Assembly (NCBI GenBank): GCA_026707405.1
Contig: JAPOWW010000004.1
Span: 213,181-277,180 of the forward strand
From: Chloroflexota bacterium
Lineage (GTDB): Bacteria; Chloroflexota; UBA11872; VXNJ01
DNA length: 64,000 nucleotides
Direction: 5' to 3'
Shown here: in pieces, positions 6,484 through 63,451 of the stretch
How positions within the stretch are numbered: the stretch's first letter is position 1
How the letters are laid out: each line of letters starts with the position of its first letter
Position numbers and translations under genes: made by a program
The notes under the pieces: model-generated
What the model saw: the letters and a program-made list of their open reading frames with translations, nothing else
Databases searched by the model: none
What the model was told of the DNA's origin: nothing

Positions 6484-7053
6484 GTGGCCGAGCGTAAGTC
6501 ACCGCCTGCCGGCGACGATTCTACGGCGACGCACTGCACGGTCCACTTGGACCGGGAGACTCTCCTGACGTGCATCAGGTGCGAACGCTCGTATTGCCGT
6601 GAGTGCATGGAGCACGTCGAAGCCGGGCTGATTTGCCACGAGTGCCTGGGCCTGCCGCCGCCGGAAGTCCAGCGTCGGAATCTCGCTATTCGCGAAGTCG
6701 TGTTCCTGACGGGTATCGCCTCGATATTCGGACTCGTGCAGCTTCTACTGTCCGCTCTCGGCCCGATTCCAATGATGCTGATCGGAGCGTTGGCCGGATG
6801 GCTGATGGGCCGCCGCCTTCGCGGTCAATGGCAGCGCGGTCTCCGGTCGGACGTATTTATGCTCGGGGCCGGCGGCGCGTTGGCTGGGACGATACTCGCC
6901 GCCATGGTGGTCGCCGGTCTGGGCGGGCTCGGCATCATCTCACTTGGAGGCGGCTCGGGCGGCCTGGGAGTCACAATAGCGCTGGTCTTGCAATCGACGT
7001 TCTATCTGGTCGGGACGATTGCCGGGCTTTTGTGGTCGGTATCCAGACGTTGA
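6484..7053 (+). CDS. zinc-ribbon domain membrane protein of unknown function
   Basis: N-terminal CxxC...CxxC...CxxC cluster (CTVHLDRETLLTCIRCERSYCRECMEHVEAGLICHEC), then 3-4 Gly/Ala/Leu-rich transmembrane helices. GTG start. TGA stop at 7051-7053 lies 1 nt before the recX GTG. Confidence 0.5.
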   Translation: MAERKSPPAGDDSTATHCTVHLDRETLLTCIRCERSYCRECMEHVEAGLICHECLGLPPPEVQRRNLAIREVVFLTGIASIFGLVQLLLSALGPIPMMLIGALAGWLMGRRLRGQWQRGLRSDVFMLGAGGALAGTILAAMVVAGLGGLGIISLGGGSGGLGVTIALVLQSTFYLVGTIAGLLWSVSRR

Positions 7054-7054
7054 A

Positions 7055-7699
7055 GTGCCCGTAGTAACGGGTTATAGCTACAAAAAGTCCCGGCGCGGTT
7101 GGGTCAGGGTGGAGTTGGACGACGGTTCATATGTATCGCTCCGTCGCGATGTCTTCGGTGAGGAAGGCTACCAAACCAACGAGGAGGTTCCGTGGGATCG
7201 CCTGCGCGACGCGGTACTGGAAAGCGAGACCAGACATGCCAAAGCCGTGGCCTACCGGTTTCTGAGCGAGCGTCCCCGAACCGTCAAGGAGATGACCGAC
7301 CGGCTCGCCAAGGAAGACTTGGGAACGAAATCAATCGAAGCGGTAGTTGCGGATCTCACTCGAAGCGGATATCTGGATGACGAGCAGTTCGCCCGATTGT
7401 GGGCCGAGAGCCGAGCAAACAACCGACCGAGGGGGCGCAGGGCCATTTCAGCGGAGCTCAGGAAGCTCGGAGTGGCCAGGGAAACTATCGAATATGTGCT
7501 GGATTCGTACTATCCCGATGATGGAGACCTTGTACGAAAGGTTGCCGTCCGCCGCGCGGAGTCGTTGCATCATCTGGACAGAGCGACTTTCCGGCGGCGG
7601 CTTGCGGGCTACTTGTCGAGACGCGGTTTCGACTATGGGACCGTGGCCCCGCTCTTGGACGAGCTATGGGAAGAATCGCCCGATTCGGAATTCGACTAG
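7055..7699 (+). CDS. recX: recombination regulator RecX
   Basis: RecX three-repeat helical pattern (AYRFLSERPRTVKEMTDRL..., LDDEQFARLWAESR..., ISAELRKLGV...). The ORF-track start (ATG 7019) overlaps the upstream gene. In-frame GTG at 7055, right after the upstream stop, gives a typical RecX length. Confidence 0.75.
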   Translation: MPVVTGYSYKKSRRGWVRVELDDGSYVSLRRDVFGEEGYQTNEEVPWDRLRDAVLESETRHAKAVAYRFLSERPRTVKEMTDRLAKEDLGTKSIEAVVADLTRSGYLDDEQFARLWAESRANNRPRGRRAISAELRKLGVARETIEYVLDSYYPDDGDLVRKVAVRRAESLHHLDRATFRRRLAGYLSRRGFDYGTVAPLLDELWEESPDSEFD

Positions 7700-9243
7700 C
7701 CAGCGACGAGCGCCCTTAGCTCCTCGATCACCTCGGGGATTTCCCCCGGCAAGTCGTCGGCGATAGCTCCGGCAGCTCCCAGCCTGTCGCCCGTTTTCTG
7801 ACCTGCAAGAGTGTGGATCAGCACTCCCAACCGCGCCGCCGGGGCGGGCTTGAGCCCTTGAGCCAGCAACGATCCGATCACTCCGGCAAGCACGTCGCCG
7901 CTGCCGGCGTGCGAGAGCGCCGGGACTGCCCAGGGACATACCACGTACGAACCGTCCGGCTCGGCCACAATCGATCCCGCTCCCTTAAGTACGACGACCT
8001 GTCCTAGCAGCCTTGCCCCCTCAAGCGCCGAGGCAAGCCGGTTGCGCTGGACCTGAATCGCGCTCGTGCCGAGCAAACGTCCCATCTCGCCCGGATGCGG
8101 GGTCACCACCAGGCTGGCCCGGCATGAAGCCAGCGTTCCGGGAGCGGGCGCACACGCATTGAGAGCGTCCGCGTCGACGACCATCGGCGTGTGGTCGGAC
8201 GCCGCTCGTATAAGCGATCTCGTGAATTCATCCGTTTCGCGGTTTCTGCCAAGTCCCGGGCCGACAACCGCGGCGTCGGCGGTCTCAATCGACTTGGCGA
8301 CCGCGTCCGAGTTGATCGCGGCGATATAGCCATCGACCTCGACAAGGTTTTCGTATGTGACGCTGCTGGTGCGTGCGGCACTTGCGGCTATGACAGGTTC
8401 GATCGATGCTAGCGACTCCATCCCGGCTCCGGTGCGAGCGGCCCCCAGGCAGGCAAGCACGGCGGCGCCGCGATAGCTTCGACACCCCGCCGCGATCAAC
8501 ACTTTCCCGTACGTACCTTTATGCCCAGTGGCCGTCCTCTCCGGAAGAGAGTTCGCTTCCTCTTCGGGCCGCAGTATTCGGCCTCGCAGTTCCGACAGGG
8601 ACTTCTCCGGTAGTCCGATGTCCGTTTCCACGAGGCGACCGCTTTTTGCCTGCGCGGGATGCAAGAGGGAGCCGACCTTTATCGGACCTGTGGCCACGGT
8701 GACATCGGCGGAGAAGGCGTTCTCGTCCGCAGCGCCTGTGTCGGCGTCGGTCCCCGACGCAACGTCACAGGCGACCCGGAGCGGTCCCGTTAGACCATCG
8801 ATTTCCTCAAGAATCCGCTGGACTTGACCGCGTAGTGGCGGCGAGCTGCCGATCCCCAACAGGCAATCGACAACGATATCTGCGTTGGCCGCGCAACGTC
8901 GGGCAAGGCCGGGTGAAAATACGATTATTCTTGCGCCGGCCTGGGCCGCGGCCTCAACAAGAGGATCGGATTCGCGGGGCCGGGATACTACTATCGTCAC
9001 CAACGCTCGGGCGCGTGCCATGTGTCGAGCGATAACCAGACCGTCGCCGCCGTTGTCCCCGGGTCCTGCCAATACCACCGCGGACTTTCCCGAAAGCCCG
9101 TTCGCCCGGGTCGATATCTCACGGAAGACGGCTGCTCCGGCGTTTTCCATAAGCCGCCCCTCGGCAATGCCGGCGCTCATGGCCGCGGCCTCCAGCTTGC
9201 GCATTTCCGAGATTGTGCAAACTCTTTCAGGGGCGGTGGTCAT
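7696..9243 (-). CDS. nnr: bifunctional NAD(P)H-hydrate repair enzyme Nnr (YjeF-N epimerase + YjeF-C ADP-dependent dehydratase)
   Basis: YjeF-N motif AGPGDNGGDGLV. C-terminal carbohydrate-kinase-like domain with GAGDVLAG. ATGA overlap with the acpS stop at 9240-9243. Confidence 0.85.
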   Translation of the reverse strand: MTTAPERVCTISEMRKLEAAAMSAGIAEGRLMENAGAAVFREISTRANGLSGKSAVVLAGPGDNGGDGLVIARHMARARALVTIVVSRPRESDPLVEAAAQAGARIIVFSPGLARRCAANADIVVDCLLGIGSSPPLRGQVQRILEEIDGLTGPLRVACDVASGTDADTGAADENAFSADVTVATGPIKVGSLLHPAQAKSGRLVETDIGLPEKSLSELRGRILRPEEEANSLPERTATGHKGTYGKVLIAAGCRSYRGAAVLACLGAARTGAGMESLASIEPVIAASAARTSSVTYENLVEVDGYIAAINSDAVAKSIETADAAVVGPGLGRNRETDEFTRSLIRAASDHTPMVVDADALNACAPAPGTLASCRASLVVTPHPGEMGRLLGTSAIQVQRNRLASALEGARLLGQVVVLKGAGSIVAEPDGSYVVCPWAVPALSHAGSGDVLAGVIGSLLAQGLKPAPAARLGVLIHTLAGQKTGDRLGAAGAIADDLPGEIPEVIEELRALVAG

Positions 9244-30867: not shown

Positions 30868-31498
30868 GAAATGAGAAATCCTGTTCACGATACGACCGTG
30901 AGCGGTGATAATAGGGAGACGCTCGACGCCGCTCGGTATGTCACGCGGGTTGCGTTCCAACATTTCTAATCGGGGAGCTTGGCTGGTGGCGGTATCGGCC
31001 GCATAGGCTGTTAACGTCGGCCGCGGGCACCCACCTGGTAGATCCAGGGGACGAATTTCAGTGGCAGCCGGCGGCCGTGGAGCGTCGCCTCGCTATGCTG
31101 AACAGCGTCTGTCTCTCAGCTTCGCGTGGAGACCGTTTCGGAGCGCACCGGGCGCCGGTGCGCTCAACACTTTGATGGGCTCTATGGCTTCGTCCGCGAC
31201 GCGGCGGAAAACCGGACAGATCGGCTCGGCGTATTCATAACCAAACAGTCCTGGTCTGTTGTGGGGACTAACACGTGCCGTTACTTTGTCGTTGCCATTG
31301 GGCTGTCCGGCCCAATACTCAAACAAACGTTCGTAAGACGTAATCGGTGTGATAACGTTCGCAGCGCCGAGTTTCGCGTCGAGAGAAAGCCGGGTAATTC
31401 CTTTCGGCGTTCTCGCGGCGGGCTTCGGAATCAGCTCACCGGCTGCTGACAACCGGCTCGGCAGTCGCTGGCATTGCGCTTCGAGAAGAGATGCCCCA

Positions 31499-37665: not shown

Positions 37666-38562
37666 CTACCGGTTCAGAGAGGGTTCCCCGTCAATCTCGC
37701 CGTGTTCCAGGTACTTTCCGGCCAGTCCGCGAACCCATGCGATGCCCTCGGTGACGAACTCTTCCGAGGTGTCTTTTCTAATCGTCGGTTCGAAGACTAT
37801 GGAAACTTCGGGATTGGCCTTCGCAACCTCTCCAATCACTCGCTCGACGTCCGCGTATCCGTCATCCGTGCGGTGAGAGGGGTGCACGGGTATGTGACCG
37901 AATTTGGCGAACTCTTCTCCGGAGCTAATGTTCCAGACGTGCATTGAAGCGACGTGCGGCGCAAGAACCCCAACTGCGGCGTGCTCGTCGCCGTTGTGGA
38001 TTTGAGCCCAGCGATGAAGGTGCCCCGTGTCGAGGCATAGCTTGAGCGGCGGGTTGGACTCGATCAGCTCGGCGAATCCGGCCGGCTGATGGAACGATCC
38101 GTGATATCCGAGAAACTCGATATGGACCTCCACGCCGTGCCGCACGGACGCTTCAGCCATCCACCCGGCGGCCTCATGGGCAAGCGTCCGCGCCGAGTCG
38201 AAGTCGATGGGTTCTTTCGAATCGGCCACGTGCGTGACCGCGAACCGGCAGCCCGTCTCGGCGGCTCGGCGCAGCGAATCATCGAGCCACTCGAACGATC
38301 TCTTACGGGCGGATGCGTCAGGATGCAGGAACAAACTTGACCGCGGCCGCTCGAATCCCCGCCACGGGGAGATGTAGGGATGATGCACGCTCAAGCCCAC
38401 GCCGCGCCGGGCGATTCCGGCGGCCAGATCTCGATATCCATCGACTGTGCAGAGCAACAGTTGCCAGTCGGTCAACCCCACGTTGTACATGCCTCGCTTT
38501 GCCAGTTTCGCCTGCCGCCAGTCGTGGAAATCAAAGCCGGGCCAGAGGTTATCCATGTTCAT
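37666..38562 (-). CDS. sugar phosphate isomerase/epimerase (xylose isomerase-like TIM barrel) family protein
   Basis: TIM-barrel pattern with metal-ligand His/Glu blocks (VHIEFLGYHG, CLDTGHLHRW). Confidence 0.65.
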   Translation of the reverse strand: MNMDNLWPGFDFHDWRQAKLAKRGMYNVGLTDWQLLLCTVDGYRDLAAGIARRGVGLSVHHPYISPWRGFERPRSSLFLHPDASARKRSFEWLDDSLRRAAETGCRFAVTHVADSKEPIDFDSARTLAHEAAGWMAEASVRHGVEVHIEFLGYHGSFHQPAGFAELIESNPPLKLCLDTGHLHRWAQIHNGDEHAAVGVLAPHVASMHVWNISSGEEFAKFGHIPVHPSHRTDDGYADVERVIGEVAKANPEVSIVFEPTIRKDTSEEFVTEGIAWVRGLAGKYLEHGEIDGEPSLNR

Positions 38563-38669: not shown

Positions 38670-40601
38670 TTGTTAACTGTCGAAGCCATAGATGAAAAGC
38701 TCCACGCTTTGCCGGCCAAGCCGGGCGCTTACCTCTTCAAGAACGCGGCCGGTCAGGTCCTCTACGTTGGCAAGGCGGCCTGCCTCAGAACTCGCGTCCG
38801 CTCGTATTTTGGAGGTCAGCGCGGCTTTTCGCCGAAGACCGTTAGTCTCGTTCAGGCTGTGCAGGATATCGAGACCCTCGTCACCGATTCCGAGATCGAA
38901 GCGCTCCTTCTTGAAATCAATCTAATCAAGCGCCACCGTCCCCGCTACAACATCATGTTCAGGGACGACAAGCAGTATCTTTACATAAAAATAACGACCG
39001 GCGAGACGTACCCGCGCGTGTTCACGACTCGCAAGATCACCCGTGACGGCTCGCGCTATTTCGGACCTTTCACAAGCGCAAAGGCGCTTCGCCAGACGCT
39101 CAAGCTGCTAAACAGGCTGTTCCCGTATCGGACGTGCTCACTGGATATGGCCAAAGAGTGGGACCGTCCCTGCCTCAAATATCACATCGAGCTTTGTAAC
39201 GGACCCTGCATACGCGTCGTTACGCCGGAGGTATATCGAGGCGTGATCGATCAGACAATCGATTTCCTCGAAGGGCGCGCCGACTACGTGGTCGACAAGA
39301 TGCGTGAGTCGATGGAAATCGCGGCGGCGGAGCTGAAGTTCGAGGCCGCGGCGCTCATGCGCGATCGCATCAGGTCGATAGAGAAGGTGATCGTCGAGCA
39401 GAAGATGGTCGATCCGCGGCGCGGCGACCGGGATGTGGTGGGTATAGCACGCGACGGCCGCGAGGCGATGGGGCAGGTGCTCAACGTGCGCAACGGCAAA
39501 GTCGTGGGGCAGGAGACCTATCGGCTGCAAGTGACGGGCGGCGAGACCGATGAGGAGATTACGTCCGAGTTCGTTCGCGAGTACTACCATCGCGCGCCGG
39601 AGGTGCCCAGGGAGATTCTGCTCCCGACCGGAGTGAACGACGGTGAAATTCTCACAGCGTGGCTTCAGACGTTGAGGGAAGGGTCCGTACGCCTGCGCGT
39701 CCCCAAGCGCGGCGTTCTGAGACGGCTTGTCAAGCTGGCCGAGTCCAACGCCGGTGAAACACTCGAGGCCGACCGGACCATTCTTCTCAATAGCTCGCGG
39801 CGGCTCAGGCACGCGCTCCTCGAGGCGGGCCAAGCACTGGACCTTCCACGCTTGCCCCGGCGGATCGAATGTTATGACATCTCGCACATTCAGGGGTCGT
39901 TGACGGTCGCTTCGATGGTCGTCTTCGAGGATGGCGTGCCCAAGAAGGGCAAATATCGACGGTTCAAGATCAGAGGATCGGCCAACGACGACTTCGCGGC
40001 CATGCGCGAGGTGATTCGCCGCCGGTTCAAGCGGCTCGCCGAGGCCGGCGGTCGGAAAGACGGAGGAGGACTCGGCGTCCGGGCGCTCAAGCGCGTGCCG
40101 CTTACCGACTTCGATCCCGCCGCGCCGCTTCCCGAGACCGCGGAGGAATCGGTCGGCACCAGCAAAGAGTGGAACTCAGTCCCCGACCTAATACTCATCG
40201 ATGGCGGCAAAGGGCAGCTTTCGGCGGCGTTGAAGGCGATGTACGAGGTTGGCGTCGAGGGCTTGCCCACAGCCGCGATCGCAAAGAAACGCGAAGAGCT
40301 TTTCTTGCCGGGAAATCCCTCGCCGATTCTGTTACCGGCTTCGTCGGACGGACTTCACCTTTTGCAGCGCATCCGCGACGAGGCGCATAGATTCGCGGTC
40401 AGCTTTCACATCCGTCTCAGGACGAAGGCTGGCCGGAGATCGATTCTCGACGAAATCCCCGGGATCGGCCCGAAACGCAAGCGCGCCTTGTACCGCAAGT
40501 TCGGTTCGTTGACCCGCATCCGCGAAGCCGGAGTCGAGGAGCTGGCGAGTGTCAAGGGCATGAGCAAACCGGCCGCCATGGCGCTCAAGGAATCGCTTTA
40601 G
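38670..40601 (+). CDS. uvrC: excinuclease ABC subunit C
   Basis: N-terminal GIY-YIG (PGAYLFKNAAGQVLYVGKA...), UvrBC-interaction domain, RNase H-like endonuclease domain, C-terminal (HhH)2. 643 aa. Confidence 0.95.
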   Translation: MLTVEAIDEKLHALPAKPGAYLFKNAAGQVLYVGKAACLRTRVRSYFGGQRGFSPKTVSLVQAVQDIETLVTDSEIEALLLEINLIKRHRPRYNIMFRDDKQYLYIKITTGETYPRVFTTRKITRDGSRYFGPFTSAKALRQTLKLLNRLFPYRTCSLDMAKEWDRPCLKYHIELCNGPCIRVVTPEVYRGVIDQTIDFLEGRADYVVDKMRESMEIAAAELKFEAAALMRDRIRSIEKVIVEQKMVDPRRGDRDVVGIARDGREAMGQVLNVRNGKVVGQETYRLQVTGGETDEEITSEFVREYYHRAPEVPREILLPTGVNDGEILTAWLQTLREGSVRLRVPKRGVLRRLVKLAESNAGETLEADRTILLNSSRRLRHALLEAGQALDLPRLPRRIECYDISHIQGSLTVASMVVFEDGVPKKGKYRRFKIRGSANDDFAAMREVIRRRFKRLAEAGGRKDGGGLGVRALKRVPLTDFDPAAPLPETAEESVGTSKEWNSVPDLILIDGGKGQLSAALKAMYEVGVEGLPTAAIAKKREELFLPGNPSPILLPASSDGLHLLQRIRDEAHRFAVSFHIRLRTKAGRRSILDEIPGIGPKRKRALYRKFGSLTRIREAGVEELASVKGMSKPAAMALKESL

Positions 40602-40616
40602 CCCGACCGCTCTGGG

Positions 40617-41624
40617 CTATTCGACCGCGATCGGCCTGCCGGTGCGGTTTGATTCGTAGGCCGCCATCACGACTTTGAAATTTCTATAGCCTTCCTCGAA
40701 CGGAACGGGCGGGGGGGCGCCGGATTCGAGCGCATCGGCGTATTCCTCGAATAGCGGGGCAAACGAACCGGATTCTTCTGCGGGTACGTCGGGATAGCTC
40801 CAGTCGTCGCCCCGCAGCACGGCGAGTTGCCGTCCTTCATGATCGAACAGGATGCTTCCTTTGTCACCGTGAATTTCCTGCACGCGTTTGGCCGCCCCGA
40901 CGCTCCATCCGATGAGTATCTGACTCGTTCCCCCGTTGGCGTGAGTCAACGTCGCCACAACCGTGTCTTCGACCTCGATATCGCGCACGAACGTTCCCAG
41001 CCGGGCGTACACCTCGGTAACCGGCGAGCCCAGGTAGGCGGCGGCGGAATAGAGACTGTGATAGGCGTTGTCGATAAGCGCGCCTCCGCCGCCCGTGCTG
41101 GTCCGCGTGCGCCAGTCGGGATCATATGCCTTGGCGCCCGGCCAGTGGCTGTCCGACAGACTTTCGATGCGTACCAGGAACGGTCTGCCGATGCCGCCTT
41201 CGTCGATCACCCGCAAAGCGGCGCTCGAACTGGCCGAATAGAGGTAGTTGTGGATTATGCAGGCGGGCGCGCCGGACTTCGCGACCGCAGCCATGATTTC
41301 GTCGGCTTCTTTCAGCGACGTTGCCATCGGCTTTTCCATGAGGATCGCTTTTCCCGAGGCGGCCGCCGCCACGCACGAGTCGCGGTGCAAAAAATGGGGA
41401 ACGGCCATGTCGACGAGATCAATGCTGTCGTCTCGCAACAGATCGTTCCAGGTGGAATAGCGGCTAACTGGAGGCACCCCGAAGCGGCCGCCTATCAGAT
41501 CGCGCCGCTCTTCGGATGGATCGGCGACCGCTACGATTTCGAAGCGGTCGCGTAGCCGTTCAAAGGCCGGCGCGTGGCCCTCTTCTACGATCCGTCCACA
41601 GCCTACGATTCCGACGCGTATCAC
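40617..41624 (-). CDS. Gfo/Idh/MocA-family NAD(P)-dependent oxidoreductase
   Basis: Rossmann N-terminus MIRVGIVGCGRIVEEGHAPA, EKP motif (MEKPMA), C-terminal alpha/beta domain. Confidence 0.85.
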   Translation of the reverse strand: MIRVGIVGCGRIVEEGHAPAFERLRDRFEIVAVADPSEERRDLIGGRFGVPPVSRYSTWNDLLRDDSIDLVDMAVPHFLHRDSCVAAAASGKAILMEKPMATSLKEADEIMAAVAKSGAPACIIHNYLYSASSSAALRVIDEGGIGRPFLVRIESLSDSHWPGAKAYDPDWRTRTSTGGGGALIDNAYHSLYSAAAYLGSPVTEVYARLGTFVRDIEVEDTVVATLTHANGGTSQILIGWSVGAAKRVQEIHGDKGSILFDHEGRQLAVLRGDDWSYPDVPAEESGSFAPLFEEYADALESGAPPPVPFEEGYRNFKVVMAAYESNRTGRPIAVE

Positions 41625-41648
41625 GTTAAAGCCGCGCGCGTCGCGTAA

Positions 41649-42500
41649 CTAATTGTTCTCGGCGCCGACGTCGAAGCCGAGAACGTCGGTCATAAACCGG
41701 GTGTTCACTTCCAGGCTCTGCCGCGGCGTCGTCTGCGAGCGGTCGAGCTCGACTGTAAGCCAACCGTCGAAGTCAGCCCTACGCAGCGCCTCGATCATCG
41801 CGACGATGTCGACCGTTCCCTGGTCCAGCTCGCTGAAAAACGCCAGCGTCGGCGCCAGTCCGTCGTGCGGCACGGCGGCTTCGGGCGTGTCGAGCTCGGG
41901 CGAGTAGTTCTTCATGTGGGCATAGATGATTATGTCGGCGTAGGTCTCAGCCACTTCGACCGGATCGTCCCCCGCCTTGGCTATGTGGGCGGGGTCGAGG
42001 ACCATCTTCACCAGGCTGGTGTCCACCTGATCGTAGAACTCGGTGATCTCGTCCCGGTTCTGGATCACCGTATTCCAGTGCGGGTGTACTCCGACCGCGA
42101 CGCCCATGTCCCGGGCGCCCTCGCATATTCGGGTCACGACCCGCGCCATCTGCGCGATCTCGGCGCTGCTGGGTCCGCCTTCCGGACGCCGCCCCGGGCC
42201 GAGCACGAGATGATGGGAGTCCATGCGCTCCAGGAATCCGGCGACCTTGAGGTTGTAGTCGATTACCTCGGTTTCGGCGGACGGATCGTGCATAAGACCG
42301 CCGCCATAGAGCCCCGAGAGCTGCAAGTTTCGCTCGGCTAGCATCGACTGGAGCTCGTCCTCGCGTCCGTCGAAATCGTCGACCACGTAGGCGAACGTCT
42401 CCATGCCCAGGTATCCGAAATCCCGGATATCGTCGAGCGCCTCAATCAGATTCTCGGCGCCCCACGTTATCTGGTGAACGGAGCAGCGAAACCGGGCCAT
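41649..42500 (-). CDS. sugar phosphate isomerase/epimerase (xylose isomerase-like TIM barrel)
   Basis: Conserved blocks GMETF, VGVHPH, VLDPAHIAKAG, IYAHMKN. Confidence 0.8.
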   Translation of the reverse strand: MARFRCSVHQITWGAENLIEALDDIRDFGYLGMETFAYVVDDFDGREDELQSMLAERNLQLSGLYGGGLMHDPSAETEVIDYNLKVAGFLERMDSHHLVLGPGRRPEGGPSSAEIAQMARVVTRICEGARDMGVAVGVHPHWNTVIQNRDEITEFYDQVDTSLVKMVLDPAHIAKAGDDPVEVAETYADIIIYAHMKNYSPELDTPEAAVPHDGLAPTLAFFSELDQGTVDIVAMIEALRRADFDGWLTVELDRSQTTPRQSLEVNTRFMTDVLGFDVGAENN

Positions 42501-42523
42501 GGGTGGCTAACTAGAGCCTGTTT

Positions 42524-43495
42524 TCACGCCCAGTAGGCCACGCCCGCGGGTTCGGTCATCAGGACTTCCTGCAGGAGCTTGACGCCCTTTTCGAGGCCCT
42601 CGTTGGGCGACATCAGGCTGTCTTCGTGCTCGATGCTCAAGACGCCGTCGTAGCCGATCATCCGAAGCTCGCTGATCATGTCCTTCCAAACGGTGAGGTC
42701 GTTTCCGTAGCCGAGCGACCGGAAGATCCACGAACGGTTGATCTCGTCCGTGTACGGCTTGGTATCGAGTACGCCGTTGACTCTGGTGTTGGCCGAGTCC
42801 ACGCGCGTGTCCTTGGCGTGGAAGTGGTGCATCGCCCCGGCTTTGCCGATTTCACGGATCGCCGCCGTAGCGTCGATGCCTTGCCAGAACAGGTGGCTCG
42901 GATCGAAGTTGGCTCCGATCTCCGGGCCTACGGCGTCGCGCAGGCGCAAGAGCGTCTCCGGGTTGTACACGGCGAATCCGGGGTGCATCTCGAATCCGAT
43001 TTTCGAGACCCCGTGATCGCGGGCGAACGCCGCCGACTCCTGCCAGTACGGAATCAGGACCTCGTTCCACTGCCACTCCAGAATTTCCGGGTAGTCCGGC
43101 GGCCACGCGCATGTAACCCAGTTGGGGTATTTCGCGCCTTCGTGGTCGCCCGGGCAGCCCGAGAACGTGATTACCGTGTCGACTCCCATCTTCTCGGCCA
43201 GGCGCATGGCGTTCCGCTCGTCTTCGACGTGCTCGGCGGCGATGTCCTTGTTCGGATGAACAGGATTGCCGTGCATGCTAAGCGCCGAGACCTCCAGGTT
43301 GTGCTCGGCCAGCGTCGCTTGGAGGGCGTCGATTTTGGCCGGATTGGCAAGCAGGTCCTTGGCGTTGCAATGAGCGTTGCCGGGATATCCTCCGCAGCCA
43401 AGCTCCACCGCTTCGACTCCGAGTCCGGATAGGTACGTAAGGACCTTCTCGAATGGCTGATCGCTCATCAGAACCGTGAATACGCCGATTTTCAT
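42524..43495 (-). CDS. sugar phosphate isomerase/epimerase (xylose isomerase-like TIM barrel)
   Basis: Blocks AVELGCGG, FEMHPGF, NFDPSHLFWQG, HHFHAKD. Confidence 0.8.
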   Translation of the reverse strand: MKIGVFTVLMSDQPFEKVLTYLSGLGVEAVELGCGGYPGNAHCNAKDLLANPAKIDALQATLAEHNLEVSALSMHGNPVHPNKDIAAEHVEDERNAMRLAEKMGVDTVITFSGCPGDHEGAKYPNWVTCAWPPDYPEILEWQWNEVLIPYWQESAAFARDHGVSKIGFEMHPGFAVYNPETLLRLRDAVGPEIGANFDPSHLFWQGIDATAAIREIGKAGAMHHFHAKDTRVDSANTRVNGVLDTKPYTDEINRSWIFRSLGYGNDLTVWKDMISELRMIGYDGVLSIEHEDSLMSPNEGLEKGVKLLQEVLMTEPAGVAYWA

Positions 43496-43534
43496 CTGTC
43501 TAGCCTCCCTTTGCGCCCCGGCGGCGCCGCGCCG

Positions 43535-44737
43535 CTAATACGAAATCTCGACACGCGAGCCTCCGTTGTCCGAAGACCTCGCGATCGAGTCCATGATGAC
43601 ATCACACTTGTAGCCGTCTTCGAATGTCGCCCCCAGCGGCGCCACGTCCTTGTCGTTGACTATGCAGTCGAGGAAGTGGTGCAGTTCATGGGCGAACGTG
43701 TGCTCCCATCCGATTATGTGCCCGTGCGGCCACCAGTGTTCCCAGTATGGATGGTCCGCCTCAGTGACGAGCACGTTTCGGAACCCGCCGGCCTGCGACG
43801 GCTGAGTGTCGGCGAGGAATACCTCAAGCTCGTTGAGACGTTCCAGGTTGAACGAAATCGAACCCTTGGATCCGTTGATCTCGAACGTGTTCAGGTTTTT
43901 CCGGCCCATCGCGAAGCGCGTGGCTTCCATCGTCCCGATGGCGCCGTTTTGAAACTCGAAGAGGCTGACGAATGCGTCGTCAACGTCAACCGGGCCCGTC
44001 TTCGAGGAGTCGTCCTCCAGGGGCCTTTCCTTGATGAAGGTCTTGAGCAGGCCGTTAACAGCCTTGGGTTCGCCGATGAGGAATCGCGCCAGGTCGATTA
44101 TGTGCGCGCCCAGGTCGCCCAGCGCTCCGCTTCCCGCTATGGCCTTGTCCAGACGCCACACCCTGGGAAACTGCGGATCGATGATCCATTCCTGACAGTA
44201 TCTGGCGCGGAAATGGAAGATATCGCCCAGGTGTCCCGCCTGAATCAGCTCCCGGGCCTGCACGATTGCGGGCACGAAGCGGTAGTTGAAGCCGCACATG
44301 TGCTTGACTCCCGCGGCCTCGGCGGCTTCGAGCATTGCTCTCGACTCGTCGGGGTTCCTGCCAAGGGGTTTCTCGCAAATCACGTGCTTTCCGGCCTGGG
44401 CCGCCGCGATGCTCGGCTCGGCGTGGAGATTGTTAGGCCCGCCGTTATCGAGAACCTGTACATCGCTGTCGGAAATCAGATCGCGCCAATCGGTGCAGTG
44501 CCGCTGGAATCCGAAGCGCTTGGCGGCGTCGGCGACCGGTCCCTCGGAGCGTCCGGCGATGTTGACGAGCACCGGATTTGCCGCGGGCGGGTACATCATG
44601 TAGGCGAGCTTCTTGTATCCGTTGGCGTGCGCCTTGCCCATGAAGGCGTAGCCGAGCATTCCGATGCCTATCGATGGGATTTCTCCCGCCGAGTCCGAAA
44701 CGCTTCCCATCGTCGTGAAACCGACATCGTCTGCCAT
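43535..44737 (-). CDS. Gfo/Idh/MocA-family oxidoreductase
   Basis: Rossmann IGIGMLGYAFMGKAHA, EKP motif (CEKPLG), long C-terminal dimerisation domain. N-terminal extension may be over-called. Confidence 0.85.
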   Translation of the reverse strand: MADDVGFTTMGSVSDSAGEIPSIGIGMLGYAFMGKAHANGYKKLAYMMYPPAANPVLVNIAGRSEGPVADAAKRFGFQRHCTDWRDLISDSDVQVLDNGGPNNLHAEPSIAAAQAGKHVICEKPLGRNPDESRAMLEAAEAAGVKHMCGFNYRFVPAIVQARELIQAGHLGDIFHFRARYCQEWIIDPQFPRVWRLDKAIAGSGALGDLGAHIIDLARFLIGEPKAVNGLLKTFIKERPLEDDSSKTGPVDVDDAFVSLFEFQNGAIGTMEATRFAMGRKNLNTFEINGSKGSISFNLERLNELEVFLADTQPSQAGGFRNVLVTEADHPYWEHWWPHGHIIGWEHTFAHELHHFLDCIVNDKDVAPLGATFEDGYKCDVIMDSIARSSDNGGSRVEISY

Positions 44738-44824
44738 GTGAGGCCCTCCGGTGAGCGGCCTTCCTTCCGTACGCGAAAGCCCTATCGGCGTGGGCGGAAA
44801 ACGTACCGCAAACCCCGCCGGTTA

Positions 44825-44850
44825 GCAAACGCCGGACACTCGGCGTTTGC
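44825..44850. promoter_or_regulatory. perfect 26-bp palindrome GCAAACGCCG-gacact-CGGCGTTTGC (candidate operator or hairpin) in a divergent intergenic region
   Basis: 10-bp perfect inverted repeat with a 6-nt spacer, 88 bp upstream of the minus-strand oxidoreductase start (44737) and about 200 bp upstream of the ZIP transporter gene. Confidence 0.3.
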
Positions 44851-45048
44851 CGCCGCAACCGGACGCGGCATTCGGTTTCGAGCCCGTGGACAGGCTGTTT
44901 AACGCACTGATTCCATCACAAGAATGTCCGGCTCTCTGCGGGATCTACATTTGGCCTGGGCAATTGACAGTTCGTAGTATTTCTCAATTCGGCTACCAGT
45001 TCCAACGGCGTCGGCGTTGATGTTTTGTAGATACGTGAGGGGCTAGCT

Positions 45049-45918
45049 ATGGAGCTTCTACCGGTCAAGCTGCTCGCCGGTCTTGGGATCATTGCGGTAA
45101 CGGTGATCGGCGGCGCCATTCCCCTCCTTGCGGCCAGCCGCCAGGTAGGCTGGCGGTTCTTCTCGCTGGGCAACGCCTTCGCCGGTGGAATCTTCCTTGG
45201 GGTCGGTTTCATTCACTTACTGCCCGAGGGGATTCATGAGCTGGAAGAGGTCGTCGACTACCCGCTGGGAGCGCTGCTGGCGGCGATAGGCGTTGGCCTT
45301 CTTCTTCTAATCGATCGCGTGATCTTCGACCGTGGACACGGACATGGTCACGGCGAAGTCCCGGCGGGTGGGGCGCCCCAGGGGGCCATCTACCCGTACA
45401 TGCTGCTCGTTCTTCTGTCGATCCATTCGATCGCCGCGGGTATCGCGCTCGGACTTGAGGAGCACTTGACGACCGTGATCATCCTTGTAATTGGAATCCT
45501 GTCTCATCAGGGTTCGGAGGCCTTCGCGTTCGTGGTCAGCACTCACGCCGCGGGACTCGAGGCAAGACGCCAGAAGATCATGCTGACGATCCTTTCCCTG
45601 ACCGTTCCCGTGGGGATCCTCGCGGGTTTGGCAACTTCAACCGCCTTGTCCGAGATGAGCGACGTGAGAAGTCTCATCGAAGGCAGTTTCGTCGCGTTCG
45701 CGGCGGGGACCTTCATCTACGTTGCGATCATCGACATCATCCACGAGGAGTTCGCCAGGAGAGAGGTGCGCGTGGCGAGGTTCGTCATGAGTGTCCTTTC
45801 CGGAGACGACGACGTACCGATGCCGACGGTGGACAGGGACCGAGTTGCGAAATTCGTGCTGATAGCTGCGGGTATCGCCTTAATGGCGGTCGTAGCCCTG
45901 TTCGCCGAGCACCACTAG
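45049..45918 (+). CDS. ZIP-family (ZupT-like) divalent metal transporter
   Basis: Eight-TM protein with His-rich loop HGHGHGH and conserved ZIP metal-binding helices (HSIAAGIALG, SHQGSEAFAF). Confidence 0.85.
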   Translation: MELLPVKLLAGLGIIAVTVIGGAIPLLAASRQVGWRFFSLGNAFAGGIFLGVGFIHLLPEGIHELEEVVDYPLGALLAAIGVGLLLLIDRVIFDRGHGHGHGEVPAGGAPQGAIYPYMLLVLLSIHSIAAGIALGLEEHLTTVIILVIGILSHQGSEAFAFVVSTHAAGLEARRQKIMLTILSLTVPVGILAGLATSTALSEMSDVRSLIEGSFVAFAAGTFIYVAIIDIIHEEFARREVRVARFVMSVLSGDDDVPMPTVDRDRVAKFVLIAAGIALMAVVALFAEHH

Positions 45919-60696: not shown

Positions 60697-61752
60697 TTGG
60701 GGGACAAGAGCATGACGGACGAACGAATTGGCCTGGGATTCATAGGCGCGGGCGACATCGTGCGGACGCGCCATCTGCCCGGTTTCGACAAGATCCCAGG
60801 AGTCGAGTTTGCCGCTGTGGCGAACAGGAGCCGCGAGTCGGCGTCGCGCGTCGCCGCCGATTTTGGGATCGCGGACGTCTGCGGCGACTGGCGGGAGGTA
60901 ATAGACCACCCTAACGTCGACGCGGTCGTTATCGGTACGTGGCCCTACAAGCACAGCGAGTATGGGATCGCTGCACTTGAAGCTGGCAAGCACGTGTTCA
61001 GCCAGGCGCGCCTGGCCATGGACGCGGCCGATGCCCGGAGGATGGTCGCGGCGGCTGCTGAATCCGGCCTGACCACGATGGTCTGTCCGCCGCCGCACGG
61101 CATGAGGGTCGAGCCGACCGTAATGCGTATGGTCGCCGATGGCTTTCTCGGCGACCCGGTGCACGTAGTCGTCCGGCACTTTCAGCCCAGCTACATGGAA
61201 GCGGCGACCCCGCTCCATTGGCGTCAGATCTCCGAGTATTCCGGCTTCCACACCCTTACCTTGGGCATATTCGCCGAGATCGTCGGCAGGTGGTTCGGGT
61301 ACGCAGCCGAAGTATCTGCAGTCGACGCGACTTTCACGCCTGAGCGGCCACTGATCGACGGTTCGGGTTCCGGGGCCGTGGGCCGGCCCGACTCGGTCTT
61401 CATCGCCGGTCGAATGGAAAGCGGCGCGACTCTGTCCTATGCATTCAGCGGCGTCGTCGGCGCTCCGTCCGGAAACGTCATCGAGGGATACGGGCTGAGC
61501 GGATCGCTTCGATACCTTGAAGATGAAGACGTCCTGCTGGCGGCGTCGGCTCCTGACTGGGTCGAGGAAGAGGTCCAGATCGCGCCTGGCGATGAGGGCG
61601 GCTGGCGGGTCGAAGAGGAGTTCATCCAGGCGATCAGAGAGGGCCGCAGCGGCAACCCCTCCTGGGAAGAAGGGTTGAAGTATATGCAGTTTGTAGAAGC
61701 TGTTGAAGAATCGGCGCGTACAGGCCGGTCGGCGTCAGTCTCTTCGGTCTAG
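60697..61752 (+). CDS. Gfo/Idh/MocA-family oxidoreductase
   Basis: Rossmann RIGLGFIGAGDIVRTRHLP, conserved EAGKHV, C-terminal domain. 351 aa. Confidence 0.85.
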   Translation: MGDKSMTDERIGLGFIGAGDIVRTRHLPGFDKIPGVEFAAVANRSRESASRVAADFGIADVCGDWREVIDHPNVDAVVIGTWPYKHSEYGIAALEAGKHVFSQARLAMDAADARRMVAAAAESGLTTMVCPPPHGMRVEPTVMRMVADGFLGDPVHVVVRHFQPSYMEAATPLHWRQISEYSGFHTLTLGIFAEIVGRWFGYAAEVSAVDATFTPERPLIDGSGSGAVGRPDSVFIAGRMESGATLSYAFSGVVGAPSGNVIEGYGLSGSLRYLEDEDVLLAASAPDWVEEEVQIAPGDEGGWRVEEEFIQAIREGRSGNPSWEEGLKYMQFVEAVEESARTGRSASVSSV

Positions 61753-61757
61753 GCTCA

Positions 61758-62621
61758 ATGGTCCGGTATCAGGATCGGTGGGTGACGGCTGACGGCCTTC
61801 GGACGCGGTACTGGGAGATCGGCGAGGGGCCGCCGGTTATCTTGCTTCACGGTATCGGCGCGCACGCCGGTTTCTGGCGGGCGTCTATACCGGCGCTTTC
61901 GGACACCTATCGAGTCATTGTCCCGGACCTGTGCGGCAGCGGTCGAAGCGAAGTCCCGCGCGAAGTTTCGCGAGCGGTCTTCGTCGGCTGGCTCGCCGGT
62001 TTCATCGACGCCGTAGGGGCGTCGCCGGCGAGTCTTGTGGCGAGTTCGATGGGAGGCGCAATAGCGCTCGCCGCCGCGCTCGACCATCGCGAAAAGGTCC
62101 AGACGCTCATTCTTGTGGATCCCGTGGGCCTCGGCAGGAGCGTGGGATACGCGTTCCGCGTCGCCAGCATACCTATCGTGGGCGAGCTCGTGGTGCCGTC
62201 GGATGCCAAAGGCATTCGCCGTCAGCTGCTGCGGCTCAGCTATGACGACGACTGGCTCTCGGACGATCTGACAGCGGAAACCGAGGAGCTCGCTCGGGAT
62301 CGGGAGCACAGGCGCTTCTTCTTCAAGTCGCTTCGCTGGGGGGTAAGCTGCATTCGTGGGATGCGCCCATCCACCCTGCTGGCTGACGAGCTTCGGAATC
62401 TCTCGATTCCCGTGCTAGTAGTCTGGGGGCGGCACGACGGCGTTTTTCCGGTTAAGCTGGCGAAAGTTGCCGCGGAACGAATACGTGGAGCCGACCTGGT
62501 TGTGATGGACCGTTGCGGGCACATGCCTCATCTCGAGCGCCCCGAGGAGTTCAATGCCCACGTTCGTCGGTTTCTACAGTCGGCGTTGACACCATCTGGC
62601 ACGCCGCCGAGCCCGAACTGA
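61758..62621 (+). CDS. alpha/beta-fold hydrolase
   Basis: HG oxyanion motif (ILLHGIGAHAG), nucleophile elbow ASSMGG, C-terminal catalytic His (CGHMPHLERPEEF). Confidence 0.8.
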   Translation: MVRYQDRWVTADGLRTRYWEIGEGPPVILLHGIGAHAGFWRASIPALSDTYRVIVPDLCGSGRSEVPREVSRAVFVGWLAGFIDAVGASPASLVASSMGGAIALAAALDHREKVQTLILVDPVGLGRSVGYAFRVASIPIVGELVVPSDAKGIRRQLLRLSYDDDWLSDDLTAETEELARDREHRRFFFKSLRWGVSCIRGMRPSTLLADELRNLSIPVLVVWGRHDGVFPVKLAKVAAERIRGADLVVMDRCGHMPHLERPEEFNAHVRRFLQSALTPSGTPPSPN

Positions 62622-62674
62622 CGTTGGCGTTCGTTTTACCCGCTTCAGCTTCAGACTTAATGTAGGGACATTAA

Positions 62675-63451
62675 ATGAGATTTGGCGTCGTGACGGGATC
62701 AGAGACCTTGGCAGCAGCCCGGGATATCGGGTTCGATTTCGTGGAAATACCGCTTGCCCGCGAGGTCAGCCCGCTTTTGAGCCGGAGTGAGCGAGCCGCC
62801 AAGAGCAAATTGCTCGCGGACGCGCCACTTCCCGTGGAAGCCGGCTGCGTGTTCTTCCCCGCGGAGATGAAGGTCATTGGTCCAGATACGAACGACTCCG
62901 CGGTGACGGAATATGTGTCCGCCGTTCTGGATAGGTGCTCGGAACTGGGAATGGAAATCGTCGTCTTCGGAAGCGGGAACTCTCGCAATATTCCCGACGG
63001 ATTCCCGATTGAACAGGCCGAAGATCAGGTGGATGCTCTCTTGCAGATGATGGGCGATGAGGCGCAAACGCGGGGGATGACCGTGGTCATCGAGCCGCTC
63101 AACACCGGGGAGTGCAACTGGATTAACTCGGTGGAAGAGGCGGCGGACATCGTGGCGCGAATCGACCATCCCAACGTCAAGGTGCTAGCCGATCTCTACC
63201 ATATTTCCGTCGAAAAGGAGGGCTTTCACGGCATGCTTGGGGCAGGCTACGACGTGGAGCACGTGCACGTGTCGAGCGCCGACCGCAGTCCTCCCCGGGA
63301 AGACGGCGCCGACTGGACTTCGATGTTCCGGGCCTTGAAGGCCCTCGGTTACGACTCGCGCCTGTCGATGGAGTGCCGTTGGACAGACTTCGAACGAGAA
63401 GCGCCTGACGCGCTCGCCTTCCTCAAGCGGGCGTGGGACGAGGCCTTTTGA
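62675..63451 (+). CDS. sugar phosphate isomerase/epimerase (xylose isomerase-like TIM barrel)
   Basis: Blocks DFVEI, VVIEPLN, LADLYHISVEKEG, HVHVSSADR. Confidence 0.8.
   Translation: MRFGVVTGSETLAAARDIGFDFVEIPLAREVSPLLSRSERAAKSKLLADAPLPVEAGCVFFPAEMKVIGPDTNDSAVTEYVSAVLDRCSELGMEIVVFGSGNSRNIPDGFPIEQAEDQVDALLQMMGDEAQTRGMTVVIEPLNTGECNWINSVEEAADIVARIDHPNVKVLADLYHISVEKEGFHGMLGAGYDVEHVHVSSADRSPPREDGADWTSMFRALKALGYDSRLSMECRWTDFEREAPDALAFLKRAWDEAF

Follow-up and report, generated by a model that had tools for sequence, protein, structure and literature searches.

Two Gfo/Idh/MocA oxidoreductases encoded together with two xylose-isomerase-like TIM barrels raise the question of which 3-keto-sugar chemistry, if any, a Chloroflexota bacterium carries out with them, and whether this is the cleavage of C-glycosides. 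We examined this cluster within a stretch of 64,000 nucleotides of contig JAPOWW010000004.1 (hereafter, the window). The four co-directional genes that the original prediction had placed between uvrC and a ZIP transporter gene were recovered as minus-strand open reading frames with exactly the predicted boundaries and Pfam families (Table 1): the outer products, P4 and P1, carry the GFO_IDH_MocA N- and C-terminal domains, and the inner ones, P3 and P2, the xylose-isomerase-like TIM barrel PF01261, all with scores far above gathering. The arrangement is operon-like, with gaps of 39, 23 and 24 bp between the genes and GGAGG-type ribosome-binding sites ahead of the first two. The divergent intergenic region upstream contains a minus-strand Shine-Dalgarno sequence (GGAGGG, 44744-44749) together with a perfect inverted repeat of 10 bp (44825-44850; GCAAACGCCG-N6-CGGCGTTTGC), which occurs once in the window, where 0.01 occurrences are expected by chance. 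An exact copy of the repeat was not found in the related loci fetched; nor did we find a promoter consensus above chance in the intergenic region, or a riboswitch or other Rfam element tied to the cluster.

Table 1. The four-gene cluster and its flanks (positions in the window).
Feature	Coordinates	Strand	Length	Description
uvrC	38670-40601	plus		cluster flank
P1	40617-41624	minus	335 aa	generic second Gfo/Idh/MocA oxidoreductase
P2	41649-42500	minus	283 aa	TIM barrel, IolE/LgdB1 group
P3	42524-43495	minus	323 aa	xylose-isomerase-like TIM barrel, AtHYD/LgdB2-LgdB3/SCO6571 group
P4	43535-44737	minus	400 aa	Gfo/Idh/MocA oxidoreductase, levoglucosan-dehydrogenase-like
Intergenic region	44738-45048	none	311 bp	divergent, 5′ of the operon
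ZIP gene	45049-45918	plus		cluster flank

The same pair of families had also been said to recur at 37666-38562 and 60697-63451, and the genes to be accompanied by no kinase, transporter or regulator. The recurrence holds for Pfam families but not at closer similarity: the three oxidoreductases match one another at 57-66 bits, no mutual match among the four TIM barrels was found at E < 1e-5, and 37666-38562 is a lone TIM barrel whose partner oxidoreductase is absent. As to transporters, MFS, EamA, AI-2E and ZIP genes and an ABC exporter pair do lie near the cluster, but none of them is a recognizable sugar importer; an importer, a kinase or a regulator was not seen beside the four genes in any genome examined. 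The cluster lies amid housekeeping genes.

By sequence comparison, the closest characterized relative of P4 is levoglucosan 3-dehydrogenase. P4 matches the NCBIfam model for levoglucosan dehydrogenase (LGDH; NF052479) over its full length, with 381 bits (cut-off, 650), and its best PDB matches are LGDH (6a3f, E 4e-100) and 4h3v (E 4e-101). It is 45-47% identical to the crystallized LGDH and keeps the EKP and GDxxxH catalytic motifs, and it falls in a separate clade, equally far from LGDH and from the uncharacterized 4h3v clade, with orthologues (52-74% identity) in Chloroflexota, Bathyarchaeia, Dormiibacterota, Planctomycetota and Actinomycetes MAGs. We propose that P4 is the C3-dehydrogenase of the cluster's substrate. 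Gly-Arg-Ser stands where LGDH has the NAD-selecting Glu43, which leaves the cofactor of P4, and hence the direction of its reaction, uncertain.

For P3, the PDB profile matches were 2zds (1e-23) and AtHYD (8ro4; 5e-11), which also ranked first and next in Foldseek (TM about 0.73-0.79) and share with P3 the motifs ELHPG, DPSH, FHxKD and ExE. P3 forms a hydratase-like superclade (NJ bootstrap 94%) with AtHYD, SCO6571 and LgdB2/LgdB3-like proteins, the last at 26-28% identity; here and below, the labels LgdB1-, LgdB2-, LgdB3- and LgdC-like denote a position beside LgdA orthologues and not the authentic Bacillus smithii sequences. The family is highly conserved, members from Clostridia, Atribacteria and Chloroflexota being 64-66% identical, and it comprises at least 8000 clusters at 90% identity, with 368 representatives found at E ≤ 1e-30. 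The only functionally named relative of P3 is AtHYD, a 2-hydroxy-3-keto-glucal hydratase, and we propose that P3 is a 2-hydroxy-3-keto-glycal hydratase.

P2 bears on the question of whether the TIM barrels group firmly with inositol enzymes, the outcome that would have spoken against the original prediction. This was seen in part: the nearest solved structures of P2 are IolE proteins, but its score on the IolE equivalog model (85 bits) falls far short of the cut-off (290). Since LgdB1-like eliminases match the same model, likewise below threshold (99-131 bits), the resemblance of P2 to IolE does not discriminate between the two, and its clustering with inositol enzymes is not firm. A profile of the P2 family scored 134-190 bits on TIM barrels of ~270-299 residues adjoining LgdA in four loci (L012, L011, L013 and L014, whose LgdA genes are 57-95% identical to LGDH), and 116 and 95 bits on IolE structures. 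P2 shares just 24-29% identity with LgdB1-like proteins, with which it groups at an NJ bootstrap of 26%, versus 11% with IolE-type proteins. Among 80 LGDH-family loci from GTDB species-representative genomes, a P2-type barrel was found only in four canonical lgd loci, in L019, which is the locus carrying this cluster, and in the IolE-like outliers L042 and L076. P2 retains an H-x-H motif, as is typical of IolE and of AtOGE, and the spacing of its H-x-H, D, H and E residues equals that of the metal and catalytic residues of AtOGE. These features suggest a metal-dependent beta-eliminase acting beside a C3 keto group.

P1 is the least distinctive of the four. It remains below threshold with all the equivalog models (IolG, 110 bits; LGDH, 99 bits), its best PDB matches being glucose-fructose oxidoreductase (7e-29) and aldose-aldose oxidoreductase. 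It carries the motifs VAVAD (NAD-type), EKP and DNAYH. Its orthologues are chiefly from Chloroflexota, identity falling from ~38% to 33% after roughly 80 matches, and at about 25% identity to LgdC-like proteins it is not an LgdC orthologue. The role that we propose for P1, a 3-keto-sugar reductase regenerating NAD+, was assigned by elimination only.

We put at about one half the probability that the four genes form a single operon for redox-neutral C3 oxidation, beta-elimination, hydration and reduction of a pyranoside or anhydrosugar. The central idea of the original prediction, that a Gfo/Idh/MocA C3-dehydrogenase and TIM-barrel enzymes work through a 3-keto sugar, draws support from the homology of P4, P3 and P2. 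The products would act in the cytoplasm as a redox-neutral 'split glycosidase', one of the levoglucosan (Lgd)/3-keto-glycoside type. The LGDH-like P4 would oxidize a pyranose-type substrate, either an anhydrosugar or a glycoside, at its C3 hydroxyl with NAD(P)+; the IolE/LgdB1-like P2 would then take the C2 proton, the C1 substituent leaving by beta-elimination to give a 2-hydroxy-3-keto-glycal; the AtHYD/LgdB2-like P3 would add water to yield a 3-keto sugar; and P1 would reduce this to the free sugar, regenerating the oxidized cofactor.

Among characterized systems, the cluster most resembles the four-enzyme levoglucosan pathway, and not the C-glycoside-cleaving Dgp system, although each enzyme is only a distant relative. 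In the levoglucosan pathway (B. smithii S-2701M; Paenarthrobacter spp.), two oxidoreductases and two TIM barrels suffice, and the chemistry ends in free hexose (PMC7676230). The B. smithii lgdA-lgdB1-lgdB2-lgdC products are of 44, 30, 36 and 43 kDa, with ~275 residues in LgdB1 and ~325 in LgdB2 (PMC7676230; PMC10066097). The cluster likewise combines two Gfo/Idh/MocA proteins with PF01261 barrels of ~280 and ~325 residues; P4 is akin to LGDH, LgdB1-type barrels beside LgdA give the P2 profile its highest scores, and P3 lies in the LgdB2/LgdB3-like superclade. However, the components are distant paralogues (at the identities given above, with P4 below the equivalog cut-off), the gene order is A-B2like-B1like-C, and whereas canonical lgd loci include ABC sugar transporters and regulators (PMC7676230; PMC10066097), the ABC transporter and a LacI/ROK-type regulator are missing here, in a core-like housekeeping setting. 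The 3-keto-glucoside pathway of Agrobacterium tumefaciens comprises the eliminase AtOGE (8BVK), the hydratase AtHYD (8RO4) and a Gfo reductase. The AtHYD motifs and fold of P3, the AtOGE residue constellation of P2 and the adjacency of an oxidoreductase to a hydratase-type barrel are in common, but P3 and AtHYD are 19% identical, the P2 profile reaches AtOGE only at E 5e-4, and the first enzyme of that pathway, a periplasmic FAD glycoside 3-dehydrogenase, is missing here. For the 3-keto-glucoside lyase system of Bacteroides (BT2156-BT2160) and Alistipes (AL1), the BT_2158 and BT_2159 models gave at most 36 bits (cut-offs, 650-750), and AL1 ranked below IolE, Art22, 2zds, AsbF and AtHYD.

The main rival, which we consider unlikely, is the conversion of an inositol-type cyclitol: one or both oxidoreductases would be inositol or inosose dehydrogenases, P2 an IolE-like inosose dehydratase, and P3 and P1 would process the diketone, the product being deoxy-inosose or feeding a non-canonical inositol catabolic route. 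IolE also catalyses a metal-dependent beta-elimination beside a ketone, several P2 homologues carry the JGI annotation 'inosose dehydratase', P4 and P1 match IolG below threshold and, with E values of 3e-52 and 3e-24, the scyllo-inositol dehydrogenase 5ya8, and the missing transporter and housekeeping context would fit an endogenous cyclitol. However, the oxidoreductases fall well short of the IolG cut-off (110-120 bits; cut-off, 355), as P2 does of that for IolE, and in the PDB search P4 is much nearer to LGDH than to scyllo-inositol dehydrogenase (339 versus 182 bits). Moreover, iolD, iolB, iolC, iolJ and iolA were not found near the cluster, which leaves nothing to open the ring, and P3, whose one named relative hydrates a pyranoid glycal, is without a counterpart in the iol pathway. 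Less probable still is a module for the epimerization or isomerization of keto sugars, in the style of YcjQRS or of L-glucose and rare-sugar metabolism, in which the oxidoreductases would form and reduce a keto sugar and the TIM barrels, as epimerases or isomerases, would interconvert sugars or glycosides with no bond cleavage. For both P2 and P3, epimerase-type barrels clearly rank under the dehydratase/eliminase/hydratase group, P2 has the H-x-H motif noted above, and the window's sole epimerase-like barrel, which matches IolO and psicose epimerase, is encoded by a separate gene (62675-63451).

Other Chloroflexota genomes or MAG contigs, at least five in number, share the four-gene order at protein identities of 51-74%, and such sharing of order and sizes is far beyond chance. 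The four genes, in equal order and sizes, lie between proS and uvrC in L008/L009, L090, L093 and L094, and in part in L019; local GC across the loci sharing the cluster runs from 45% to 66%. At least some of the Chloroflexota MAGs with the syntenic, core-like cluster are marine. In this lineage, synteny extends over the entire region from proS to uvrC, and adjacency could partly reflect general genome stability; it is nevertheless very improbable that descent alone keeps the four genes side by side and that they serve separate pathways. They are co-directional and tightly packed, and they stay together while their flanks differ, the adjoining ZIP and MFS genes being missing from L008, L090, L093 and L094 and DUF2927 or LVIVD insertions occurring. 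The rearranged yet four-component L092 has an LgdB3/2zds-type barrel in the position of P3, which argues for functional equivalence, and the pairing of a Gfo/Idh/MocA oxidoreductase with a hydratase-type barrel recurs in Clostridia, Atribacteria, Terriglobia, Rhizobium, Streptomyces and Bathyarchaeia.

Least probable of all is the C-glycoside cleavage of the DgpA/DgpBC or CarABC type named in the original prediction: the Pfam families equal those of DgpA and DgpC, DgpA structures are among the distant matches of P4 and P1 (E 1e-19 to 5e-22), and C3 oxidation followed by beta-elimination through 2-hydroxy-3-keto-glucal would be common to both, but the Dgp/Car deglycosidases are heteromers of a TIM-barrel alpha subunit and an obligatory small beta-sandwich subunit, essential for activity (PMC8563793), whose gene is missing from the tightly packed cluster, and P2 and P3, both full TIM barrels, belong to other subfamilies, with no detectable sequence relation to DgpC/CarB, a low structural rank for Dgp/Car and, for either barrel, no C-glycoside deglycosidase alpha subunit in PDB profile searches (E ≤ 0.1) or the Foldseek top 50. 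The architecture of the cluster effectively refutes this reading.

At least six genomes retain, under selection as a unit, the four genes of what may be a levoglucosan-like, redox-neutral route. The substrate is probably other than levoglucosan itself, because P4 lies well outside the LgdA equivalog group, and, given the housekeeping surroundings of the cluster, it could be endogenous.

The four genes of the cluster, designated P4, P3, P2 and P1 in 5′ to 3′ order, encode two oxidoreductases of the Gfo/Idh/MocA family (GFO) flanking two xylose-isomerase-like TIM barrels, and occupy exactly the coordinates of the original prediction. The genes are separated by gaps of 39, 23 and 24 bp, and ribosome-binding sites of the GGAGG type are found ahead of P4 and P3. 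At the downstream end uvrC is convergent with P1, and at the upstream end a ZIP gene is divergent from P4, with 311 bp between them. A perfect inverted repeat is located in the divergent region common to P4 and the ZIP gene, 88–113 nt upstream of P4, together with a third related half-site. The repeat, a possible operator or hairpin, occurs once in the window, and none of the related loci carries an exact copy. Scans for promoters and terminators gave nothing above chance, and no riboswitch was found near the cluster with Rfam. A 6S RNA (48.5 bits vs the Rfam gathering score of 46.4) is encoded away from the cluster, and none of the four tRNA genes of the window is close to it.

Coordinates and assignment of the features in the window
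Feature	Position (nt)	Strand	Domain or composition
P4, GFO, 400 aa	43535–44737	−	GFO_IDH_MocA N- and C-terminal domains (Pfam)
P3, TIM barrel, 323 aa	42524–43495	−	PF01261 (Pfam)
P2, TIM barrel, 283 aa	41649–42500	−	PF01261 (Pfam)
P1, GFO, 335 aa	40617–41624	−	GFO_IDH_MocA N- and C-terminal domains (Pfam)
Inverted repeat	44825–44850		GCAAACGCCG-N6-CGGCGTTTGC
Third related half-site	44808–44817		
Three-gene group	60697–63451	+	GFO, 351 aa; alpha/beta hydrolase, 287 aa; TIM barrel, 258 aa
Lone TIM barrel, 298 aa	37666–38562	−	PF01261
6S RNA	30918–31087	+	
tRNA genes (four)	24896; 55362; 56180; 57871		

The P4-P3-P2-P1 unit, unchanged in order and sizes, is found between proS and uvrC in the related loci L008/L009, L090, L093 and L094; in L019, an Arabian Sea Chloroflexota MAG and the best genome match to the window, the contig ends after the first three genes. 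Marine samples, Tara among them, supplied further relatives, and the window's own contigs are of metagenomic origin. Across the syntenic loci, P4 and P3 are each 65–74% identical to the window proteins, P2 51–60% and P1 51–57%, and local GC varies between 45% and 66%. The flanking genes differ between genomes and the four genes remain together. In L092, a rearranged version is formed by a TIM barrel (333 aa), two GFO proteins (383 and 371 aa) and a P2-like gene, with a barrel of the LgdB3/2zds type in the position of P3. Because the four genes are kept together despite their variable flanks, and the rearranged version is still four-component, we regard the cluster as a selected unit. As the original prediction had observed for the window, no sugar importer, kinase or regulator lies beside the four genes, and this holds for all of these loci. 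The GC content of the syntenic region, 45% in the marine contig L008 vs about 61% in the window, spreads widely for one syntenic lineage.

The window contains other genes of the same two families, for which recent duplication as a source was rejected from a comparison among the window proteins. The three-gene group is unrelated to the cluster; its barrel is of the epimerase type, with sub-threshold matches to the 5-keto-L-gluconate epimerase IolO and to psicose 3-epimerase, and not of the eliminase/hydratase type. A similar alpha/beta hydrolase adjoins a TIM barrel and a P4-like gene in a planctomycete locus (L025). The lone barrel just past uvrC has no partner oxidoreductase, and its sole match, a weak one, is to CbiR, a cobamide-remodelling phosphodiesterase; a PF01261 gene is found at the equivalent position in L008 (42% identity) and L094, and is absent from L090 and L093.

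P4 gave a full-length match to the NCBIfam model for levoglucosan dehydrogenase (LGDH, or LgdA; NF052479). It matched the crystallised LGDH (PDB 6a3f) with an E value of 4e-100 and an identity of 45–47%; an uncharacterised Kribbella protein (4h3v) was matched equally well. Our residue comparison with LGDH covered the generic catalytic motifs EKP and GDxxxH, which are conserved, and the cofactor determinant, the NAD-selecting Glu43, in place of which P4 has Gly-Arg-Ser. A survey of 80 LGDH-family loci from GTDB species-representative genomes revealed three clades: canonical LGDH, 56–95% identical to 6a3f; an actinobacterial clade including 4h3v, usually with a 2zds-type barrel immediately downstream; and the P4 clade, 52–72% identical to P4 and usually beside a barrel of about 330 aa. 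The P4 clade is separate from the canonical LGDH loci (L010–L015), and its members come from MAGs of Chloroflexota, Bathyarchaeia, Dormiibacterota, Planctomycetota and Actinomycetes; in Bathyarchaeia and Anaerolineae the P4-like genes have housekeeping neighbours only, which give no clue to the substrate.

In one Bathyarchaeia MAG (L017, 6876–9143), a P4 orthologue (61% identity) adjoins a hydratase-type barrel in the neighbourhood of genes for an archaeal Cdc6, a DNA polymerase small subunit and an intein-containing eIF2-gamma; the high identity of P4 across domains suggests that this pair moved by horizontal transfer. Four actinobacterial MAGs (L021, L028, L049 and L050, at about 6900–9100) show an ORF of more than 700 aa with a P4-like match, extending upstream across a stretch in which a hydratase-type barrel is encoded as well. 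These ORFs may be a long-open-frame artefact of high GC content, or an overlap or fusion; the high-GC actinobacterial and planctomycete neighbourhoods were left uninterpreted, because greedy ORF calling is unreliable there.

P3 belongs to a large family, which comprises at least 8000 clusters when grouped at 90% identity and has 368 representatives at E ≤ 1e-30; its members in Clostridia, Oscillospiraceae, Atribacteria and other Chloroflexota are 64–66% identical to P3. P3 matched the 2-hydroxy-3-keto-glucal hydratase of the Agrobacterium tumefaciens 3-keto-glucoside pathway (AtHYD, PDB 8ro4, for which we found no paper) with E values of 2e-8 (phmmer) and 5e-11 (profile), at an identity of only 19%, and has in common with it the motifs ELHPG, DPSH, FHxKD and ExE. 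A Foldseek search with the predicted model of P3 (pLDDT 81) returned as its top two matches 2zds, of the SCO6571 group, and AtHYD (E 9e-16; TM 0.73). For the Lgd proteins other than LgdA, the references were genes adjoining LgdA orthologues in GTDB genomes (LgdB1/B2/C-like), as proxies for the B. smithii proteins. In a neighbour-joining (NJ) tree, P3, the LgdB2/LgdB3-like barrels, the 2zds type, the barrels adjacent to P4-clade genes and AtHYD fall into a single clade (94% bootstrap), in which the P3 family is monophyletic (also 94%) and separate, at 26–28% identity to the LgdB2/B3-like proteins. Barrels of the P3 family, or P3-like, adjoin a GFO gene in Clostridia, Atribacteria, Terriglobia, a Rhizobium plasmid and Streptomyces. 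In gut and other Clostridia (L003–L005, 6167–10091), a four-gene block encodes a GFO (361 aa), a TIM barrel (240 aa), a P3-family barrel (321 aa) and a second GFO (354 aa); the 321-aa barrel, 65% identical to P3, is its sole component orthologous to the window cluster, and the block lies amid housekeeping genes (argG, argH, an aminoacyl-tRNA synthetase) with no transporter.

The P2 family is narrow, with 45 homologues. Its profile scored 116 and 95 bits on IolE structures and 134–190 bits on the 270–299-aa barrels beside canonical LgdA genes (L012, from Paenarthrobacter, L011, L013 and L014), which were taken to be LgdB1 and are 24–29% identical to P2. With the IolE model (TIGR04379, cut-off 290 bits), P2 scored 85, P3 38 and the LgdB1-like proteins 99–131 bits; since the LgdB1-like proteins also match this model below threshold, the resemblance of P2 to IolE is non-discriminating. 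In the NJ tree the P2 family adjoins the LgdB1-like proteins, with IolE further out, and the weak bootstrap values (26% vs 11% for the alternative) do not separate LgdB1-like from IolE-type proteins as its sister group; a firm clustering of P2 with IolE, of the kind that the original prediction had named as refuting it, was not found. In AtOGE, the A. tumefaciens 3-keto-glucoside eliminase, and sites of its type, the metal ligands are His/Asp/His/Glu and the catalytic His lies two residues past the first His. The invariant residues of P2 (E34, H139-P-H141, D169, H195, K197 and E251) match this spacing of ligands and catalytic histidine, and also align with the IolE motifs HHH, DxGH, HxKD and E. 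These relatives of P2 (LgdB1-like, AtOGE and IolE) all carry out a metal-assisted beta-elimination beside a carbonyl.

P1, judged from its sequence, is a generic member of the Gfo/Idh/MocA family. The PDB entries that it matches best are glucose-fructose oxidoreductase and aldose-aldose oxidoreductase, it scores far under the cut-off of every equivalog model, and its orthologues are largely restricted to Chloroflexota, where a homologue 94% identical to it is annotated as a Chloroflexi MAG protein.

From these relationships we infer a four-step route in which P4, assigned by homology, would oxidise C3 of the sugar, P2 would beta-eliminate the C1 substituent, P3, as a proposed hydratase, would hydrate the resulting 2-hydroxy-3-keto-glycal, and P1 would reduce the product to the free sugar and recycle the cofactor. 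The first-acting oxidoreductase could be either P4, with its substitution at the Glu43 position, or P1, which carries a classical VAVAD motif. We prefer this sugar reading, with a probability of about 0.5, mainly because two oxidoreductases and two barrels suffice for such Lgd chemistry (PMC7676230), while the ring-opening enzymes that a cyclitol route requires are absent here; we consider action on a cyclitol rather unlikely.

The cluster is best described, by analogy, as working like the Lgd pathway but falling outside the Lgd family. Its composition and protein sizes fit the published description (PMC7676230; PMC10066097), but P4 fails the LgdA equivalog cut-off (381 vs 650 bits) and P1 shares about 25% identity with the proteins at the LgdC position in L012 and L014 and is no orthologue of LgdC. 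Moreover, lgd loci commonly carry a sugar ABC transporter and a transcription regulator nearby (PMC7676230; PMC10066097), and neither was found within ±10 kb of the window cluster or in the syntenic loci. As to the Dgp-type signature of the original prediction, the 3-keto-sugar logic is supported by homology, with P4 LGDH-like and P3 in the AtHYD clade, but identity with DgpA/DgpBC is not. The Dgp/Car deglycosidases need a small beta-sandwich beta subunit (DgpB/CarC) beside the barrel alpha subunit (PMC8563793); the cluster has only its four closely spaced genes, the middle two encoding full PF01261 barrels, and no beta-sandwich protein. No alpha subunit of the DgpC/CarB/DfgA type was found with the P2 or P3 profile at E ≤ 0.1 or in the Foldseek top 50, and DgpA structures scored 70–82 bits with P4 and P1, vs 339 bits for LGDH with P4; a Dgp/Car C-glycoside system was therefore rejected. 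A canonical iol cluster is excluded by the sub-cut-off IolE and IolG scores (for IolG, TIGR04380, cut-off 355 bits, P1 scored 110 and P4 120 bits) and by the lack of iolD/B/C/J/A companion genes in the neighbourhood. The Bacteroides BT2156-2160 system is ruled out by best scores of 36 and 28 bits with the BT_2158_fam and BT_2159_fam equivalogs (cut-offs 750 and 650 bits).

Only in recent years, and to our knowledge only in a few soil and gut bacteria, has the cleavage of glycosides and anhydrosugars by oxidation in place of hydrolysis been elucidated. The architecture and logic of the cluster are familiar, and all four components fall outside the characterised subfamilies; it is a conserved locus without a transporter in an under-studied lineage, retained in every relative examined, at least some of them marine. 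A far-reaching and rather improbable extension is that the operon is devoted to a class of substrates new to these organisms, and the P3 family a general salvage hydratase for 2-hydroxy-3-keto-glucal in many phyla. The substrate could then be pyrogenic anhydrosugars deposited in the ocean (levoglucosan, mannosan, galactosan), or an endogenous or algal glycoside whose cleavage needs no glycoside hydrolase, and a P3-type hydratase would cover the unidentified step of the gut Dgp pathway. Should the cluster act on cyclitols, the finding would be more ordinary. For the preferred sugar reading, the cluster proteins would be concrete candidates for expression. Assigning a function to the P3 family, which is large, highly conserved and always paired with a GFO gene, would annotate thousands of genes; a four-gene version of the pathway conserved among Chloroflexota MAGs, of which some are marine, would bring this chemistry to an abundant, poorly cultivated group.
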